Sequence record: MT968995.1
Source of the DNA: Escherichia phage vB_EcoM_WL-3
Length of the DNA: 64,000 nt
Direction: 5' to 3' (one strand)
Both the position numbers and the translations under genes were made by a program. The notes under the pieces are model-generated. The model searched no databases and had not been told where the DNA came from. It saw only the letters and a program-made list of their open reading frames with translations. The stretch's first letter is position 1. Each line of letters begins with the position of its first letter. Below are positions 4,195 through 44,432 of this stretch, piece after piece.

Positions 4195-4593
4195 TCAGCC
4201 TTCATCAACAATAGTGTGAGTATTAGCATTTACGATTTGCCACCAATCAAAGCGATTAGAATCCATCGGTTTGTTTTCATTTTCTTTGATAATGTCACGG
4301 AGTTCATCTTCAGAGAATGCTTTAGCGATTAAATCGGTATACCCACCACGTGGATAATAATTATCACCTGCAAACAAAAGGAAATTTACCTTCCCGGAAG
4401 GAACATACGCTTCCTTAGGATACTTGTTTCCTGCGTGGTCAACCACTTCAATATAACGGTAAGGAATATCGGTTCTTTCAACCCATTGCCATGCCGCCGC
4501 AGGGGAATCGAAAGCATCTACACCTAAACGATTATCTTCATCTTTAGACGGATTATTTTCGTAATCCGCATATACATAATATTCAACGTTCAT
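4195..4593 (-). CDS. hypothetical protein
   Basis: 132-aa ORF, ATG start overlapping upstream ORF stop. Confidence 0.5.
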   Translation of the reverse strand: MNVEYYVYADYENNPSKDEDNRLGVDAFDSPAAAWQWVERTDIPYRYIEVVDHAGNKYPKEAYVPSGKVNFLLFAGDNYYPRGGYTDLIAKAFSEDELRDIIKENENKPMDSNRFDWWQIVNANTHTIVDEG

Positions 4594-4778
4594 TATTCAC
4601 CTTTAGAAATTTTATCCATAACAATAGCAATTAAACCAATTAAAAATGCTACTACAAGTGAAAAAACATTTTCTGCCGTAGTCAATAATCCGCATATAAA
4701 TCCAACAAACATTGAAAAACTGAAAGCGGAAGCAGAAATTGCAATAGCAACATTTCGAATTAATTCACAACGTTTCAT
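4593..4778 (-). CDS. small predicted membrane protein
   Basis: 61 aa with two hydrophobic stretches (AIAISASAFSFSMFVGFICGLL, VFSLVVAFLIGLIAIV). Confidence 0.45.
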   Translation of the reverse strand: MKRCELIRNVAIAISASAFSFSMFVGFICGLLTTAENVFSLVVAFLIGLIAIVMDKISKGE

Positions 4779-26288: not shown

Positions 26289-29429
<3,141 letters not shown>

Positions 29430-29457: not shown

Positions 29458-31437
29458 ATGACTTTATTATCTCCGGGCATTGAGCTCAAAGAAACTACGG
29501 TTCAAAGCACCGTGGTTAATAACTCTACTGGTACAGCAGCTTTGGCCGGTAAATTCCAGTGGGGTCCTGCTTTTCAGATTAAACAGGTTACAAACGAAGT
29601 AGATTTAGTTAATACTTTTGGTCAACCTACAGCTGAAACTGCTGACTATTTTATGTCTGCAATGAATTTCTTACAATATGGAAATGATTTGCGAGTTGTG
29701 CGCGCTGTCGATAGAGATACCGCTAAAAACTCATCTCCGATTGCTGGTAATATTGAATACACAATTTCTACCCCAGGTAGTAACTACGCGGTTGGAGATA
29801 AAATCACGGTCAAATATGTTTCAGAAGATGTTGAAACAGAAGGTAAAATTACCGAAGTAGATGCTGATGGAAAAATTAAGAAAATTAATATTCCTACTGC
29901 AAAAATTATTGCTAAAGCTAAAGAAGTTGGCGAATACCCAACATTAGGTTCTAACTGGACTGCAGAAATTTCTTCATCTTCTTCCGGTTTAGCTGCAGTA
30001 ATAACTCTTGGAAAAATTATTACTGATTCCGGTATTTTATTAGCTGAAATCGAGAGCGCTGAAACTGCTATGACAGCAGTTGATTTTCAGGCAAATCTTG
30101 AAAAATATGGAATTCCAGGAGTAGTAGCTCTCTATCCAGGCGAATTAGGCGATAAAATTGAAATTGAAATCGTATCTAAAGCTGACTATGCGAAAGGCGC
30201 TTCTGCATTACTGCCAATTTATCCAGGTGGTGGTACTCGTGCATCTACTGCCAAGGCAGTATTTGGATATGGGCCGCAGACTGACTCACAGTACGCTATT
30301 ATAGTTCGTCGTAATGATGCTATTGTTCAAAGTATTGTTCTTTCAACTAAGCGTGGTGAAAAAGATATTTACGATAGTAACATCTATATTGATGACTTTT
30401 TCGCAAAAGGTGGTTCAGAATATATTTTCGCAACTGCGCAAAACTGGCCAGAAGGCTTCTCTGGAATTTTAACTCTGTCTGGTGGATTATCATCAAATGC
30501 TGAAGTAACAGCAGGAGATTTGATGGAAGCTTGGGACTTCTTTGCTGACCGCGAATCTGTTGACGTTCAGTTGTTTATTGCGGGTTCTTGTGCCGGTGAA
30601 TCTCTTGAAACAGCATCTACTGTCCAAAAACATGTTGTTTCAATTGGTGATGCTCGTCAAGATTGCTTAGTATTGTGCTCACCTCCGCGTGAAACTGTAG
30701 TTGGAATTCCTGTAACTCGTGCAGTAGATAATTTAGTTAACTGGAGAACTGCAGCAGGTTCATACACTGATAATAACTTTAATATCAGTTCAACCTACGC
30801 AGCAATTGATGGTAACTACAAATATCAGTATGACAAATATAATGATGTGAATCGTTGGGTTCCATTAGCAGCTGATATTGCTGGTTTATGCGCAAGAACT
30901 GATAACGTATCTCAGACTTGGATGTCTCCAGCTGGTTATAATCGTGGCCAGATTCTTAACGTTATTAAACTTGCTATTGAAACTCGCCAAGCTCAGCGCG
31001 ACCGTTTATACCAAGAAGCTATTAATCCAGTAACTGGTACAGGTGGCGATGGTTACGTATTGTATGGTGATAAAACAGCTACTTCTGTTCCTTCTCCATT
31101 TGATCGTATTAACGTTCGTCGTCTGTTTAATATGTTGAAAACGAATATCGGACGTAGTTCAAAATATCGTTTGTTCGAATTAAACAACGCGTTTACTCGT
31201 TCATCATTCCGCACAGAAACTGCCCAATACTTACAGGGAATTAAAGCTCTCGGTGGAATTTATGAATATCGTGTAGTTTGCGATACAACAAATAACACTC
31301 CGTCAGTAATTGATAGAAATGAGTTTGTTGCAACATTCTACATTCAACCGGCTCGTAGTATAAATTATATCCAACTTAATTTCGTCGCAACTGCTACTGG
31401 TGCAGATTTCGATGAGTTAACTGGTCTTGCAGGTTAA
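29458..31437 (+). CDS. 18: gp18 contractile tail sheath
   Basis: 659 aa as in T4. Confidence 0.95.
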   Translation: MTLLSPGIELKETTVQSTVVNNSTGTAALAGKFQWGPAFQIKQVTNEVDLVNTFGQPTAETADYFMSAMNFLQYGNDLRVVRAVDRDTAKNSSPIAGNIEYTISTPGSNYAVGDKITVKYVSEDVETEGKITEVDADGKIKKINIPTAKIIAKAKEVGEYPTLGSNWTAEISSSSSGLAAVITLGKIITDSGILLAEIESAETAMTAVDFQANLEKYGIPGVVALYPGELGDKIEIEIVSKADYAKGASALLPIYPGGGTRASTAKAVFGYGPQTDSQYAIIVRRNDAIVQSIVLSTKRGEKDIYDSNIYIDDFFAKGGSEYIFATAQNWPEGFSGILTLSGGLSSNAEVTAGDLMEAWDFFADRESVDVQLFIAGSCAGESLETASTVQKHVVSIGDARQDCLVLCSPPRETVVGIPVTRAVDNLVNWRTAAGSYTDNNFNISSTYAAIDGNYKYQYDKYNDVNRWVPLAADIAGLCARTDNVSQTWMSPAGYNRGQILNVIKLAIETRQAQRDRLYQEAINPVTGTGGDGYVLYGDKTATSVPSPFDRINVRRLFNMLKTNIGRSSKYRLFELNNAFTRSSFRTETAQYLQGIKALGGIYEYRVVCDTTNNTPSVIDRNEFVATFYIQPARSINYIQLNFVATATGADFDELTGLAG

Positions 31438-31443
31438 TTGATT

Positions 31444-31459
31444 GTGGGGCTTCGGCCCC
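31444..31459 (+). terminator. UUCG-tetraloop hairpin after gene 18 (attenuator/stability element)
   Basis: ggggc-ttcg-gcccc directly after gp18 stop; no strong U tract. Confidence 0.4.
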
Positions 31460-31476
31460 TATTCTCGAGGAAACAA

Positions 31477-32082
31477 GTGATTATTTCTAAGTTTGTTACA
31501 ATAAAACCAAGAAATCATTCAAAAATGTGGTCGACAATTCTGGGATATAAAGTATCATATCATGATACAATATCTGTTCCAATAGAATTAATGCCAAAGA
31601 ATAGTAATAAAATAGTTGACGCTAAATGTGATTTGTGTGGTATTAAATTTAGTAGAAGCATTCAGCTTTTAAATAGAACACCCACACATGCATGTAGAAA
31701 ATGTAGCATTAAACAAGTTGCTATTAAAAATTCGGAAGTTCAATCTGGAATAAGCAGACCATGGCAAAGAGGCGATAAACATCCTCGATGGACTGGTAAA
31801 AGAAAAGAGTTTGCATTATATGCTAGTAGAGTTCATTCTATAACTAAGTCAGCTAAAATAAGAAAAATTTGGTCAAAATGGCCGAATGCTGATAAAATAG
31901 GAGTGTGCGGCGTAGAAGGTGCTTACCAACTTGATCACAAGGTATCTATCAAATATGGATTTGATAATTTAATTCCGCCGGAAATTATAGCAAGCGTAAA
32001 AAATTTAGAAATAATCACTTGGGAATCTAACCGAGAAAAGTCAAAAAGAAATAGCGTAGATCTTTGGGATTTACTAGAATGA
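31477..32082 (+). CDS. free-standing HNH endonuclease between genes 18 and 19
   Basis: C-terminal block QLDHKVSIKYGFDNLIPPEIIASVKNLEIITWESNREKSKRN (D-H...N...N); track start is TTG inside the hairpin; GTG at 31477 has GAGG 6 nt upstream. Confidence 0.65.
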   Translation: MIISKFVTIKPRNHSKMWSTILGYKVSYHDTISVPIELMPKNSNKIVDAKCDLCGIKFSRSIQLLNRTPTHACRKCSIKQVAIKNSEVQSGISRPWQRGDKHPRWTGKRKEFALYASRVHSITKSAKIRKIWSKWPNADKIGVCGVEGAYQLDHKVSIKYGFDNLIPPEIIASVKNLEIITWESNREKSKRNSVDLWDLLE

Positions 32083-32107
32083 TTCTAAAGGCCTGTTTCG
32101 GCAGGCC

Positions 32108-32115
32108 ATATAAAT
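32108..32115 (+). promoter_or_regulatory. T4 late promoter TATAAATA (distal, gene 19)
   Basis: Exact TATAAATA following hairpin ggcctg-n6-caggcc. Confidence 0.45.
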
Positions 32116-32166
32116 ACACTATATCCTTAATTCTTTAATTCTATATGCCCTAGGTTAAACATAGGG

Positions 32167-32174
32167 ATATAAAT
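32167..32174 (+). promoter_or_regulatory. T4 late promoter TATAAATA (proximal, gene 19)
   Basis: Exact TATAAATA 16 nt upstream of gp19 ATG. Confidence 0.6.
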
Positions 32175-32189
32175 ACTACAGAGGCTAAT

Positions 32190-32681
32190 ATGTTTGTAGA
32201 TGATGTAACACGAGCGTTTGAATCTGGTGATTTTGCTCGACCTAACTTATTCCAAGTAGAAATTTCTTATCTTGGACAAAATTTTACGTTTCAATGTAAA
32301 GCCACTGCTTTACCAGCTGGTATTGTAGAAAAAATTCCAGTCGGATTTATGAACCGTAAAATTAACGTAGCAGGCGATCGTACATTCGATGACTGGACTA
32401 TTACAGTAATGAATGATGAGGCGCATGATGCACGCCAGAAGTTTGTTGACTGGCAAAGCATTGCTGCTGGGCAAGGAAACGAAATTACTGGTGGAAAACC
32501 AGCAGAGTATAAAAAGAGTGCTATTGTACGCCAATATGCTCGTGACGCTAAAACTGTAACAAAAGAAGTCGAAATTAAAGGCCTGTGGCCTACTAACGTG
32601 GGTGAACTTCAGTTAGATTGGGATTCAAACAATGAAATCCAAACCTTTGAAGTAACTCTCGCTCTCGATTATTGGGAATAA
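32190..32681 (+). CDS. 19: gp19 tail tube protein
   Basis: 163 aa as in T4. Confidence 0.95.
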   Translation: MFVDDVTRAFESGDFARPNLFQVEISYLGQNFTFQCKATALPAGIVEKIPVGFMNRKINVAGDRTFDDWTITVMNDEAHDARQKFVDWQSIAAGQGNEITGGKPAEYKKSAIVRQYARDAKTVTKEVEIKGLWPTNVGELQLDWDSNNEIQTFEVTLALDYWE

Positions 32682-32713
32682 AATGAATGGGGAGAAATCC
32701 CCATCCTGCTTAA

Positions 32714-38068: not shown

Positions 38069-38083
38069 TCTTTGACGATTTAA

Positions 38084-38102
38084 GGGACCTTCGGGTCCCT
38101 TT
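38084..38102 (+). terminator. rho-independent terminator after gene 23
   Basis: gggacc-ttcg-ggtccc followed by TTT. Confidence 0.6.
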
Positions 38103-38116
38103 AGTTGTTTTTATGG

Positions 38117-38124
38117 TATAAATA
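38117..38124 (+). promoter_or_regulatory. T4 late promoter TATAAATA for gene 24
   Basis: Exact TATAAATA 27 nt upstream of gp24 ATG. Confidence 0.6.
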
Positions 38125-38151
38125 AATCATATAAACCAAAAGGAAAGCGCA

Positions 38152-42870: not shown

Positions 42871-42883
42871 AATATTTCCTCAG

Positions 42884-42891
42884 TATAAATA
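42884..42891 (+). promoter_or_regulatory. T4 late promoter TATAAATA for uvsW
   Basis: Exact TATAAATA 29 nt upstream of uvsW ATG. Confidence 0.55.
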
Positions 42892-42920
42892 TAGATATAT
42901 TTATTACATGGTATTTAGAC

Positions 42921-44432
42921 ATGACTGACATTAAAGTACATTTTTATGATTTTAGTCACGTGAGAATTGATTGTGAAGAAAGTACATTTCATGAACTCCG
43001 TGATTTCTTTAGCTTTGAAGCTGATGGGTATCGTTTTAATCCGAAATACAAATATGGTCACTGGGATGGACGAATCCGTCTTTTAGATTATAATCGCCTT
43101 CTTCCGTTCGGCTTAGTCGGGCAAATTAAAAAGTTCTGTGATAACTTTGGCTATAAAGCCTGGATTGACCCACAAATTAACGAAAAAGAAGAATTATCAA
43201 GAAAAGATTTTGATGAATGGCTTTCTAAATTAGAAATCTATTCAGGAAATAAAAGAATTGAACCGCACTGGTATCAAAAAGATGCAGTGTTCGAAGGATT
43301 AGTTAATCGTCGTAGAATTCTTAATCTTCCAACATCCGCAGGTAAATCTTTAATTCAAGCTTTGCTTGCACGTTATTATTTGGAAAATTATGAAGGTAAA
43401 ATTCTTATCATTGTTCCAACAACTGCTCTGACAACTCAGATGGCTGATGACTTTGTTGACTATCGTTTATTCAGTCATGCAATGATAAAGAAAATTGGTG
43501 GTGGAGCATCAAAAGATGATAAATATAAAAATGATGCACCAGTCGTTGTTGGTACATGGCAAACTGTAGTAAAACAACCAAAAGAATGGTTCTCACAGTT
43601 TGGAATGATGATGAATGATGAATGCCATCTTGCCACAGGAAAAAGTATTTCATCTATCATATCAGGTTTAAATAACTGCATGTTCAAATTTGGTCTATCA
43701 GGTTCATTACGTGATGGCAAAGCTAATATCATGCAGTATGTTGGAATGTTTGGTGAAATATTTAAGCCAGTAACGACTTCTAAATTAATGGAAGATGGAC
43801 AAGTAACTGAGTTAAAAATTAATAGTATTTTTCTTCGCTATCCTGATGAGTTCACTACTAAATTAAAGGGAAAAACTTACCAAGAAGAAATAAAAATTAT
43901 TACTGGGCTCAGTAAAAGAAATAAATGGATCGCTAAATTAGCTATTAAGCTTGCGCAAAAAGATGAAAACGCTTTTGTCATGTTTAAGCATGTATCACAT
44001 GGTAAAGCTATTTTCGATTTAATTAAAAATGAATACGATAAAGTTTATTACGTATCAGGAGAAGTTGATACTGAAACGCGCAATGTAATGAAAACCTTAG
44101 CTGAAAACGGTAAAGGAATAATTATAGTAGCTAGTTATGGTGTATTTTCTACTGGTATTTCAGTTAAAAATCTGCATCACGTTGTTTTAGCGCACGGCGT
44201 TAAATCTAAAATTATTGTATTGCAAACAATAGGTCGTGTATTACGTAAGCATGGTTCTAAAACAATCGCAACGGTCTGGGACCTCATTGATGATTGCGGT
44301 GTTAAGCCAAAATCTGCTAATACGAAAAAGAAATACGTTCATTTGAACTATCTTTTAAAACACGGCATTGATCGTATTCAGCGCTACGCAGATGAAAAAT
44401 TTAATTACGTAATGAAAACAGTTAATTTATAA
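42921..44432 (+). CDS. uvsW: UvsW recombination/repair helicase
   Basis: 503 aa; Walker A PTSAGKS, DECH box. Confidence 0.9.
   Translation: MTDIKVHFYDFSHVRIDCEESTFHELRDFFSFEADGYRFNPKYKYGHWDGRIRLLDYNRLLPFGLVGQIKKFCDNFGYKAWIDPQINEKEELSRKDFDEWLSKLEIYSGNKRIEPHWYQKDAVFEGLVNRRRILNLPTSAGKSLIQALLARYYLENYEGKILIIVPTTALTTQMADDFVDYRLFSHAMIKKIGGGASKDDKYKNDAPVVVGTWQTVVKQPKEWFSQFGMMMNDECHLATGKSISSIISGLNNCMFKFGLSGSLRDGKANIMQYVGMFGEIFKPVTTSKLMEDGQVTELKINSIFLRYPDEFTTKLKGKTYQEEIKIITGLSKRNKWIAKLAIKLAQKDENAFVMFKHVSHGKAIFDLIKNEYDKVYYVSGEVDTETRNVMKTLAENGKGIIIVASYGVFSTGISVKNLHHVVLAHGVKSKIIVLQTIGRVLRKHGSKTIATVWDLIDDCGVKPKSANTKKKYVHLNYLLKHGIDRIQRYADEKFNYVMKTVNL

Follow-up and report, generated by a model that had tools for sequence, protein, structure and literature searches.

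The region between gene 18 (tail sheath) and gene 19 (tail tube) of Escherichia phage vB_EcoM_WL-3 was analysed in a stretch of 64,000 nucleotides from sequence record MT968995.1. This whole stretch is referred to below as the window, and positions are counted from its first letter. The window was found to belong to a T6-like Tequatrovirus: over positions 30900-32700 it shares 98-99% identity with many phages, among them T6, Shigella phage SF2-1 and Yersinia phage PST. An earlier inspection of the letters alone, called here the sequence-only reading, had claimed that genes 18 and 19, adjacent in T4, are separated in this DNA by an open reading frame (ORF) of about 200 amino acids (aa) for a free-standing HNH endonuclease. 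Comparison with T4 confirmed the adjacency, the two genes being separated there by a spacer of only 116 bp and in T2 by the same spacer, and the ORF was found to have 201 aa and to run from GTG 31477 to TGA 32082. The segment that carries this ORF is best explained as a compact free-standing homing-endonuclease cassette with throttled expression; the probability of this explanation was put at roughly 0.65. The features of the locus are as follows.

29422-29429: late promoter TATAAATA of gene 18
29458..31437, plus strand: gene 18 (tail sheath), upstream flank
31438..32081, plus strand: heterologous segment of 644 bp, delimited by alignment with T4 and by the junction sequences of 16 loci
31446..31459, plus strand: C(UUCG)G tetraloop hairpin GGGGC-UUCG-GCCCC, part of the insert, 9 nt past the gp18 stop codon
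31467..31471, plus strand: Shine-Dalgarno (SD) sequence GAGGA, 5 nt 5' of the GTG
31477..32082, plus strand: HNH-like endonuclease ORF, 201 aa, GTG start, TGA at 32080-32082; matches phrog_5104 with E 7e-83
32090..32107, plus strand: native spacer hairpin, U(UUCG)G, identical in T4
32109-32116 and 32168-32175, plus strand: two native late promoters TATAAATA, identical in T4
32190..32681, plus strand: gene 19 (tail tube), downstream flank

The 644-bp segment stands in place of the octamer TACGGTGC of the empty T4/T2-type spacer. From ATTCTAAAGG rightward, the window aligned with T4 base for base, and this identical stretch takes in the second hairpin, both late promoters and the ribosome-binding site of gene 19. 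What the insert itself adds is the ORF, with its stop codon abutting the right boundary, and in front of it a ribosome-binding site preceded by the first hairpin, and nothing else. The hairpin predicted at the gp18 stop codon was indeed present. The two late promoters named in the sequence-only reading are also present, at 32109 and 32168, but their supposed role in restoring gp19 expression was not upheld: since they and the downstream hairpin are identical in T4, they are part of the unaltered native spacer and are not borne by the insert. The ORF start was set at GTG 31477 because the N-terminus MIISK is conserved throughout the family. No paralogues of the ORF were found in the window, and no Rfam family or intron-like RNA was found at the locus.

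The right junction (32075-32087) forms a near-perfect palindrome, TAGAAT-G-ATTCTA, one half of which comes from the end of the ORF and the other from the native spacer. Both hairpins flanking the ORF (31446-31459 and 32090-32107) close on a UUCG tetraloop. The ORF has been given many labels, among them putative head morphogenesis protein, holin, type II restriction endonuclease, homing or HNH endonuclease and, from most annotation pipelines, hypothetical protein.

Occupancy of the junction was counted with synthetic junction BLAST queries in the Tequatrovirus records of GenBank (~500). The 18/19 junction was empty in ~382 records and occupied in ~116, including T6. The ORF is not universal at this junction: neither T4 nor T2 has it, and some three quarters of the Tequatrovirus records lack it. 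The identical replacement of 8 bp by 644 bp was seen across hundreds of near-identical genomes, which otherwise shared 97-99% identity, and a T6-type protein of at least 95% identity was encoded in 69 of the occupied records. Occupancy was sporadic within genera, and some genomes were empty. Because scans of IMG/VR and JGI yielded few close relatives, the population counts rest on the GenBank phage collection. Three GenBank records, MG010123 (Staphylococcus phage SAJK-IND) and OR584013 and PV654520 (Pseudomonas phages), contain a Tequatrovirus 18-19 region 98% identical to that of coliphages, which suggests mislabelled hosts or contaminating contigs.

RB3 and its relatives were found to carry a second allele at the same 18/19 site. 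The T6-type and RB3-type alleles are ~98% identical in the leader and the first eight codons and ~92% identical in the last ~225 bp, which encode the HNH domain. The unrelated part of the window allele is the following.

31498..31857, plus strand: segment of ~360 bp unrelated at the DNA level to the RB3-type allele, protein 27-39% identical

Judged from the alignment, the resulting mosaic looks like a domain swap. The N-terminal domains of the two Tequatrovirus lineages are 27% identical. The RB3 type is nearer to the versions in T4-like contigs and in Klebsiella, Serratia and Shewanella phages (60-75%), and the T6 type groups with those of Dhakavirus, Karamvirus and Gaprivervirus (60-68%). 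Dhakavirus itself has two lineages, represented by UP19 and Bp7; in Tequatrovirus and Dhakavirus, two or three deep lineages occur at the one site. Enterobacter phage KMB20 (Karamvirus) carries two members in tandem between genes 18 and 19 (locus L006, 2501-3100 and 3210-3902), one of the T6-like lineage and one CHI14/Bp7-like with the sequence NLQIIPW.

The ORF is under purifying selection. The ratio of non-synonymous to synonymous substitution rates (dN/dS) lay at 0.03-0.07 in comparisons among T6-type genes and at 0.19-0.31 in those across genera; the HNH domain was under tighter constraint than the N-terminal domain. The divergent lineages, the mosaic alleles and the selection fit an active, horizontally exchanged homing endonuclease gene, the recognition domain of which would evolve faster than the catalytic one. 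A decaying or inactive relic of such a gene, comparable to T4 I-TevIII or mobA, would suit the lack of a significant HNH model match described below and the fixation of the site in some clades. However, the ORF was intact in every copy inspected at the sequence level, its catalytic residues are invariant, and three T6-type comparisons gave 24 synonymous and 3 non-synonymous differences, so a relic was regarded as highly improbable.

The encoded protein has two domains.

31477..31746, plus strand: N-terminal domain, residues 1-90, with a CxxC...CxxC treble-clef-like zinc finger (C51, C54, C73, C76)
31858..32079, plus strand: C-terminal HNH (beta-beta-alpha-metal) domain, with D153-H154 at 31933-31938, N176 at 32002-32004 and N185 at 32029-32031

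The C-terminal domain contains the block QLDHKVSIKYGF...NLEIITWESNREKSKRN, which is collinear by eye with the PF01844 consensus DH..P...GG....NL.....CN..K (classical DH...N...N). D153-H154, N176 and N185 were invariant in 31 full-length homologues and in 36 very diverse C-terminal domains, as were Y150, Q151, L177, W182, R186 and K188. The AlphaFold model had a predicted local distance difference test score (pLDDT) of 90.6 for the whole protein and of 89.6 for the C-terminal domain. At the motif it shows a strand (150-154), a second strand (177-181) and a helix (182-188); the two antiparallel strands, the helix with metal ligands and the His/Asn/Asn residues that define the superfamily are all present in the model and the alignment. 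An HNH-type fold of the ORF product is likely on the strength of motif and model together. The predicted template modelling score (pTM) was low (0.52), and linker residues 90-110 were of lower confidence, which points to two domains on a flexible tether. The N-terminal zinc-finger domain is the presumed DNA-binding and specificity module.

In profile searches, 6617 cluster representatives were retrieved at E<=1e-3, and in some relatives the HNH module was fused to other N-termini, for example DUF7487. The family was placed by PHROGs in phrog_5104, of unknown function. The N-terminal half also matched the N-terminus of phrog_12131, a 'homing endonuclease', with E 4e-4, and 12 of the 31 members weakly matched DUF4379, a treble-clef zinc-finger family. 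The protein had no match in PADLOC.

The best structural matches of the model were the HNH proteins of GVE2 (5h0o) and Geobacter (Gme HNH, 4h9d), with modest similarity and a sequence identity of 9-16%. Both are exactly of the terminase-associated class, and the ORF lies one gene from terminase gene 17 and one gene from portal gene 20. These facts would favour a packaging-associated HNH protein of the HK97 gp74/GVE2 type, which would aid DNA cutting by the large terminase. But the two matched proteins are single-domain proteins of ~100 aa that have no zinc finger and are not optional, and the window protein has an extra zinc-finger domain, which, together with throttled translation, is a misfit for a stoichiometric packaging factor. 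Moreover, T4, T2 and ~76% of Tequatrovirus records have no such ORF, and these phages package normally. The gp17 protein of T4-type phages has its own nuclease domain and performs headful packaging, which also counts against a packaging role. This alternative was therefore considered very improbable.

Expression of the putative endonuclease gene was considered next to its leader. No late promoter was found between 29422 (gene 18) and 32109, and no canonical intrinsic terminator was found at the locus. Late expression of the ORF would therefore depend on read-through from gene 18 past the UUCG hairpin. This hairpin (31446-31459) has a folding energy of -11.3 kcal/mol and a z score of -2.35; with no U-tract after it, it is to be regarded as an attenuator or an element that affects RNA stability, and not as a canonical terminator. 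One further element overlaps it.

31438..31465, plus strand: weak sigma70-like element TTGATT-N16-TATTCT, 8/12, with the hairpin inside its spacer

This element fell below the threshold of the promoter scan (9/12), and its score was reached by 35 of 500 shuffles; it is a possible degenerate early promoter of the PeSL (promoter/stem-loop) type. In UP19, KMB20, RZ and a Klebsiella phage, the sequence TTTAC(T/A)-N17-TA(T/C)AAT was found right after the gp18 stop codon, with scores of 10/12 in the first three and 9/12 in the Klebsiella phage; in RB3 the spacing is altered. The order in these cassettes is promoter, hairpin of unrelated sequence, SD sequence and GTG, and hairpins of differing sequence occupy the same position in 7 homologous cassettes. 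Because the match in the window is weak and has a hairpin in its spacer, early transcription of the ORF is uncertain here.

The leaders raise the alternative that the cassette was moved by PeSL-type promoter/stem-loop recombination, including mini-circles as in RB49/phi1, and that the nuclease was not the driver. The PeSL cassettes of RB49/phi1 (PMC2839356, Arbiol et al.; PMC4122927) likewise have a promoter-like box and a G/C-rich stem-loop before an optional ORF. This architecture is clear in the cassettes of UP19, KMB20 and RZ, and that of the Klebsiella phage also opens with a promoter followed by a stem-loop. In the window, a GGGG...CCCC stem-loop lies between weak -35 and -10 boxes, and the cassette is flanked by the two UUCG hairpins. 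Against this, the two hairpins have only ~6 nt in common, the left boundary lies right after the gp18 stop codon and not inside a hairpin common to the empty site, and the promoter match of the window is weak. PeSL shuffling was described for hyperplastic regions and predicts varied sites, whereas the window family occupies one fixed site in the core structural module, and a conserved motif of a putative nuclease would be left unexplained. Movement by this route was thus judged quite unlikely, and homing was preferred.

A second kind of control was found in the mRNA of the ORF, where two distant segments can form a helix over the start codon.

31474..31499, plus strand: 5' arm, comprising CAA, the GUG start and the first 7 codons
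31996..32021, plus strand: 3' arm, codons V-K-N-L-E-I-I-T-W of the HNH beta2 strand

A repeat scan showed that the arms are complementary at 24 of 26 positions and lie about 500 nt (496 nt) apart; none of 300 gene-body shuffles reached such complementarity. When the 631-nt ORF mRNA was folded, the helix was part of the minimum free energy structure, with a pairing probability of ~1.0. The same helix was found in RB3, UP19, RZ, the Klebsiella phage and Ursula, with duplex energies from -26 to -33 kcal/mol. In all members with a GTG start, 16-20 Watson-Crick pairs were present in the 20-bp core. Members with an ATG start had only 11-13 of the 20 pairs, although the peptides are the same or near-identical and are encoded by other codons (P0007, MIISKFV/NLEIIPW; P0008, MIISKFI/NLQIITW; P0023, MIISKFV/NLQIVSW). 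Since these members encode like peptides without the helix, conservation of the protein does not account for it.

Third codon positions face third codon positions in the helix, and several changes are matched on the two sides. In the group of Klebsiella, Ursula and Thanatos, ATT to ATC in codon 3 is paired with GAA to GAG in the distal Glu codon; in P0010, A(-1)/ACT is replaced by U(-1)/ACA, and RZ has one G.U pair. Across 13 distinct sequences, 85% of cells were paired, compared with 33-47% in slid registers, and three pairs changed on both sides. Among the codons for invariant amino acids in ten divergent genes, those frozen to one codon amounted to 4 of 7 in the helix and 4 of 44 elsewhere (Fisher p=0.008). 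The segment swapped between T6 and RB3 lies wholly inside the loop closed by the helix. Because the partner of the start region lies inside the distal coding sequence, the helix cannot form until the greater part of the gene is present as RNA. A likely role, as far as the pairing pattern indicates, is closing of the initiation site after transcription of the distal arm, or service as an RNase III substrate. Local hairpins that sequester the translation initiation region (TIR) are known for I-TevI, I-TevII, I-TevIII, Aeh1 mobE and segB (PMC3014915); no description of a start-codon helix that pairs over ~500 nt with codons of a catalytic strand was found in the literature.

Taken together, motif, model and distribution indicate that the ORF probably encodes an active free-standing HNH homing endonuclease of an uncharacterised zinc-finger-plus-HNH family, both activity and homing being predictions. 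The cassette would comprise a hairpin-bearing leader and an ORF that starts with GUG and has its stop codon at the right boundary. The protein would be bipartite, with an N-terminal zinc finger for DNA recognition, a flexible linker and a C-terminal HNH nuclease (D153-H154, N176, N185). In a mixed infection with a phage of the empty T4/T2 junction type, the enzyme would nick or cut the empty allele, most probably at or across TAA|TACGGTGC|ATTCTAAAGG, and recombination-dependent repair of the T4 type would then copy the cassette together with flanking gene 18/19 DNA. The GUG start would keep translation low, and the upstream hairpin would attenuate read-through of the late transcript of gene 18. 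Once the full mRNA exists, the ~20-bp helix would shut the initiation site, so that translation could take place only co-transcriptionally; alternatively, the duplex would be a target of RNase III. GUG start and helix would together confine a toxic nuclease to a short pulse.

Several observations weigh against this explanation. The hidden Markov model (HMM) search against PF01844 and PF13392 suggested by the sequence-only reading gave no significant match. In the window protein no Pfam HNH family at all was matched, PF14279 and PF13395 included, and the best Pfam values among the 31 members were E 0.078 for HNH_4 and E 0.22 for HNH_5, each in a single member. There was no HNH match in NCBIfam. 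Sequence searches of the PDB with full-length and C-terminal profiles gave no match to solved HNH structures; they returned only zinc-finger matches or spurious leucine-rich repeat (LRR) matches, the latter from the C-terminal profile through its NLQ..P motif. Comparisons by hhalign with T4 MobE (probability 0.1%), RB3 MobE (probability 0.7%) and RB3 I-TevIII (probability 0.4%) were not significant. Because no curated model matched, the HNH assignment rests on the motif, the predicted fold and the modest structural similarity. Of the 'clear HNH block' that had been announced, motif and predicted fold therefore stood, and a significant match to a curated HNH model did not materialise. The proposed homing-endonuclease insertion fared similarly: optional presence, exact boundaries, purifying selection and divergent lineages with mosaic alleles at one site were all found, and the model match was lacking. 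As to the helix, most of its pairs never vary, so the evidence from covariation is thin.

The flanks of the insertion site supply further points of this kind. A patch at 31351-31390, 48-87 bp before the gp18 stop codon, contains ~20 variable sites in 40 bp, mostly synonymous with one Q/T change. It occurs as three haplotypes among near-identical phages and adjoins a 47-bp block that is almost invariant. Sites -57 and -51 of this patch separated occupied from empty junctions perfectly in 16 loci. However, synthetic recombinant-junction BLAST queries revealed counter-examples both ways: TB004 combines the 'occupied' haplotype with an empty junction, and in sb1, sb3 and Ec_YwIITB1 the T4 haplotype goes with an occupied one. 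The single-nucleotide polymorphisms (SNPs) of the patch were therefore rejected as a determinant of immunity or co-conversion and attributed to ordinary linkage; the patch may represent old co-conversion tracts. Since no flanking polymorphism was strictly linked to occupancy, a signature of co-conversion or immunity is missing and the target can only be inferred. Alignment of the junction with insert-free genomes, also suggested earlier, thus yielded exact boundaries (644 bp for 8 bp) but no flanking site tied to occupancy. The junction itself is the only systematic difference between empty and occupied genomes within ~100 bp, which is compatible with a target that spans the insertion point. 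If the enzyme spares its own genome, the putative site should span TAA|TACGGTGC|ATTCTAAAGG.

Absolute fidelity to the site across very distant phages also fits a vertically inherited accessory gene that is often lost. The junction between the sheath gene and a gp19-type tube gene houses all 27 full-length zinc-finger-plus-HNH members with readable context: those of T6, G2133, RB3, UP19, Bp7, KMB20, RZ, Klebsiella phi1_146043, Acinetobacter Mokit, Sinorhizobium phiM7, Aeromonas AS-zj, Ursula, STP4-a, COW86c, PSTRCR_121, Thanatos-2, CkP1 and ten metagenomic contigs. Both DUF7487-type relatives inspected sit elsewhere. The corresponding alternative is a dispensable accessory nuclease of the tail/packaging block that does not home and serves, for example, in late degradation of competitor or host DNA. 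Besides the single junction shared by all 27 members, even in phages of Sinorhizobium, Acinetobacter, Aeromonas and Shewanella, it would accommodate the strong purifying selection, the missing SNP signature and an identity between genera that roughly matches the divergence of core genes (between the window and UP19, the HNH proteins are 66% and the gp19 proteins 73% identical). It does not readily accommodate the coexistence of deep lineages at the site in one genus and even in tandem in one genome, the mosaic T6 and RB3 alleles, or an exact replacement repeated in hundreds of near-identical genomes. Tight translational throttling by a GUG codon and a sequestered start is typical of toxic selfish endonucleases, and the failure of PADLOC to match the protein also speaks against an accessory nuclease. 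This alternative was considered rather unlikely, and the homing-endonuclease cassette was retained as the preferred explanation.

A wider proposal was kept tentative, at somewhat less than an even chance. According to it, a homing lineage that has gone unrecognised and is faithful to one site may occupy the sheath/tube junction across the T4-like superfamily and may be helix-gated in the clades of enterobacterial phages. The extension of the same reading to mechanism is equally tentative; there the helix would time translation as a co-transcriptional 'one-shot' device or would be a switch for RNase III, and the loop would contain the exchangeable zinc-finger specificity module.

Elements of this kind are ordinary in T-even phages; the family, the absolute fidelity to the junction and the long-range helix are new details. 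The zinc finger, the fidelity and the helix had gone unnoticed in the sequence-only reading. The nearest known systems are the T4 genes mobA to mobE (PMC2988022). MobA-MobE are likewise HNH-type products of free-standing, sporadic intergenic ORFs between conserved essential T-even genes. They have little or no promoter of their own, mobA also has a GUG start, and translation of Aeh1 mobE is limited by RNA structure. However, the Mob proteins show no detectable sequence relation to the window family (hhalign probability <1%). Their HNH domain is N-terminal and their DNA-binding region C-terminal, the reverse of the order in that family, and they use NUMOD-type modules instead of a zinc finger. 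Their genes lie among those of nucleotide metabolism and are controlled by local hairpins, in contrast to the window ORF, which lies in a late structural operon and has a helix spanning ~500 nt. I-TevIII of RB3 shares the bipartite architecture of HNH and zinc finger within Tequatrovirus, and RB3 also carries the RB3-type allele of the window family. It differs in being intron-encoded, in matching Pfam HNH_3 (PF13392) with E 1.9e-11 and in having an N-terminal HNH domain with C-terminal zinc fingers. Membership in a Mob-like or I-TevIII-like family was rejected because hhalign showed no relation and the domain order is reversed.

The helix resembles the TIR-sequestering structures of T4 e, soc and 49, I-TevI and Aeh1 mobE (PMC3014915) in that the start codon or SD sequence is buried and translation of a harmful protein is restricted. 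The T4-type structures differ in being local hairpins with upstream sequence that are relieved by an internal late promoter; in the window ORF the start codon has its partner ~520 nt downstream, among the codons of the catalytic strand.

The window family is not mentioned in the reviews that were consulted (PMC2988022), and a 2010 census of homing genes in T4-related phages did not list this ORF for RB3 or Acj61, both of which carry it (PMC2993671). A Hef-like identity was not supported: phages 133 and Acj9, 'hef-like' in that census, were not among the Acinetobacter records in the 45 listed of 237 matching records, and Acj61 and RB3, which do carry the family, were not counted there as hef-like.

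Other sites of homing genes were compared as well. As the sequence-only reading had stated, the segD and segE sites are empty in the window: the 23/24 spacer has 83 bp (38069-38151) and the inh/uvsW spacer 50 bp (42871-42920). T4, unlike the window, has segD at 23/24 and segE at inh/uvsW. Since both are missing here, the complement of homing genes differs from that of T4. The ORF at the uvsW position of the window (42921-44432) has 503 aa, compared with 587 aa in the RefSeq annotation of T4. An ORF of 193 aa was seen between genes 19 and 20 in KMB20 (L006, 4398-4979) and in Bp7 (L011, 3769-4350), with weak matches to NUMOD3 and to SegE-type GIY-YIG; past this ORF, the annotation of the Bp7 portal gene is split in two (4408-4731 and from 4737 on). 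One metagenomic T4-like contig (L041, 2105-4324) has a portal gene adjacent to the tube gene that contains an intein (Portal_T4/Intein_splicing/Portal_T4), a further selfish element of this block.

Free-standing homing endonucleases influence whose genes prevail in co-infections by related phages, and they mark boundaries of genetic exchange. With the family described here, the T-even repertoire would gain a third HNH type that is distinct in sequence, and a drive element would lie inside an essential late structural operon. It is predicted that T6-type phages preferentially transmit the gene 18/19 region in crosses with T2 or T4. As one junction is kept while the putative recognition domain diverges and is swapped, the family would offer a natural system for the study of a homing enzyme that tracks a drifting target. 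The long-range helix at the start codon, if true, would be a simple and testable way to restrict synthesis of a toxic protein to a brief pulse during transcription.

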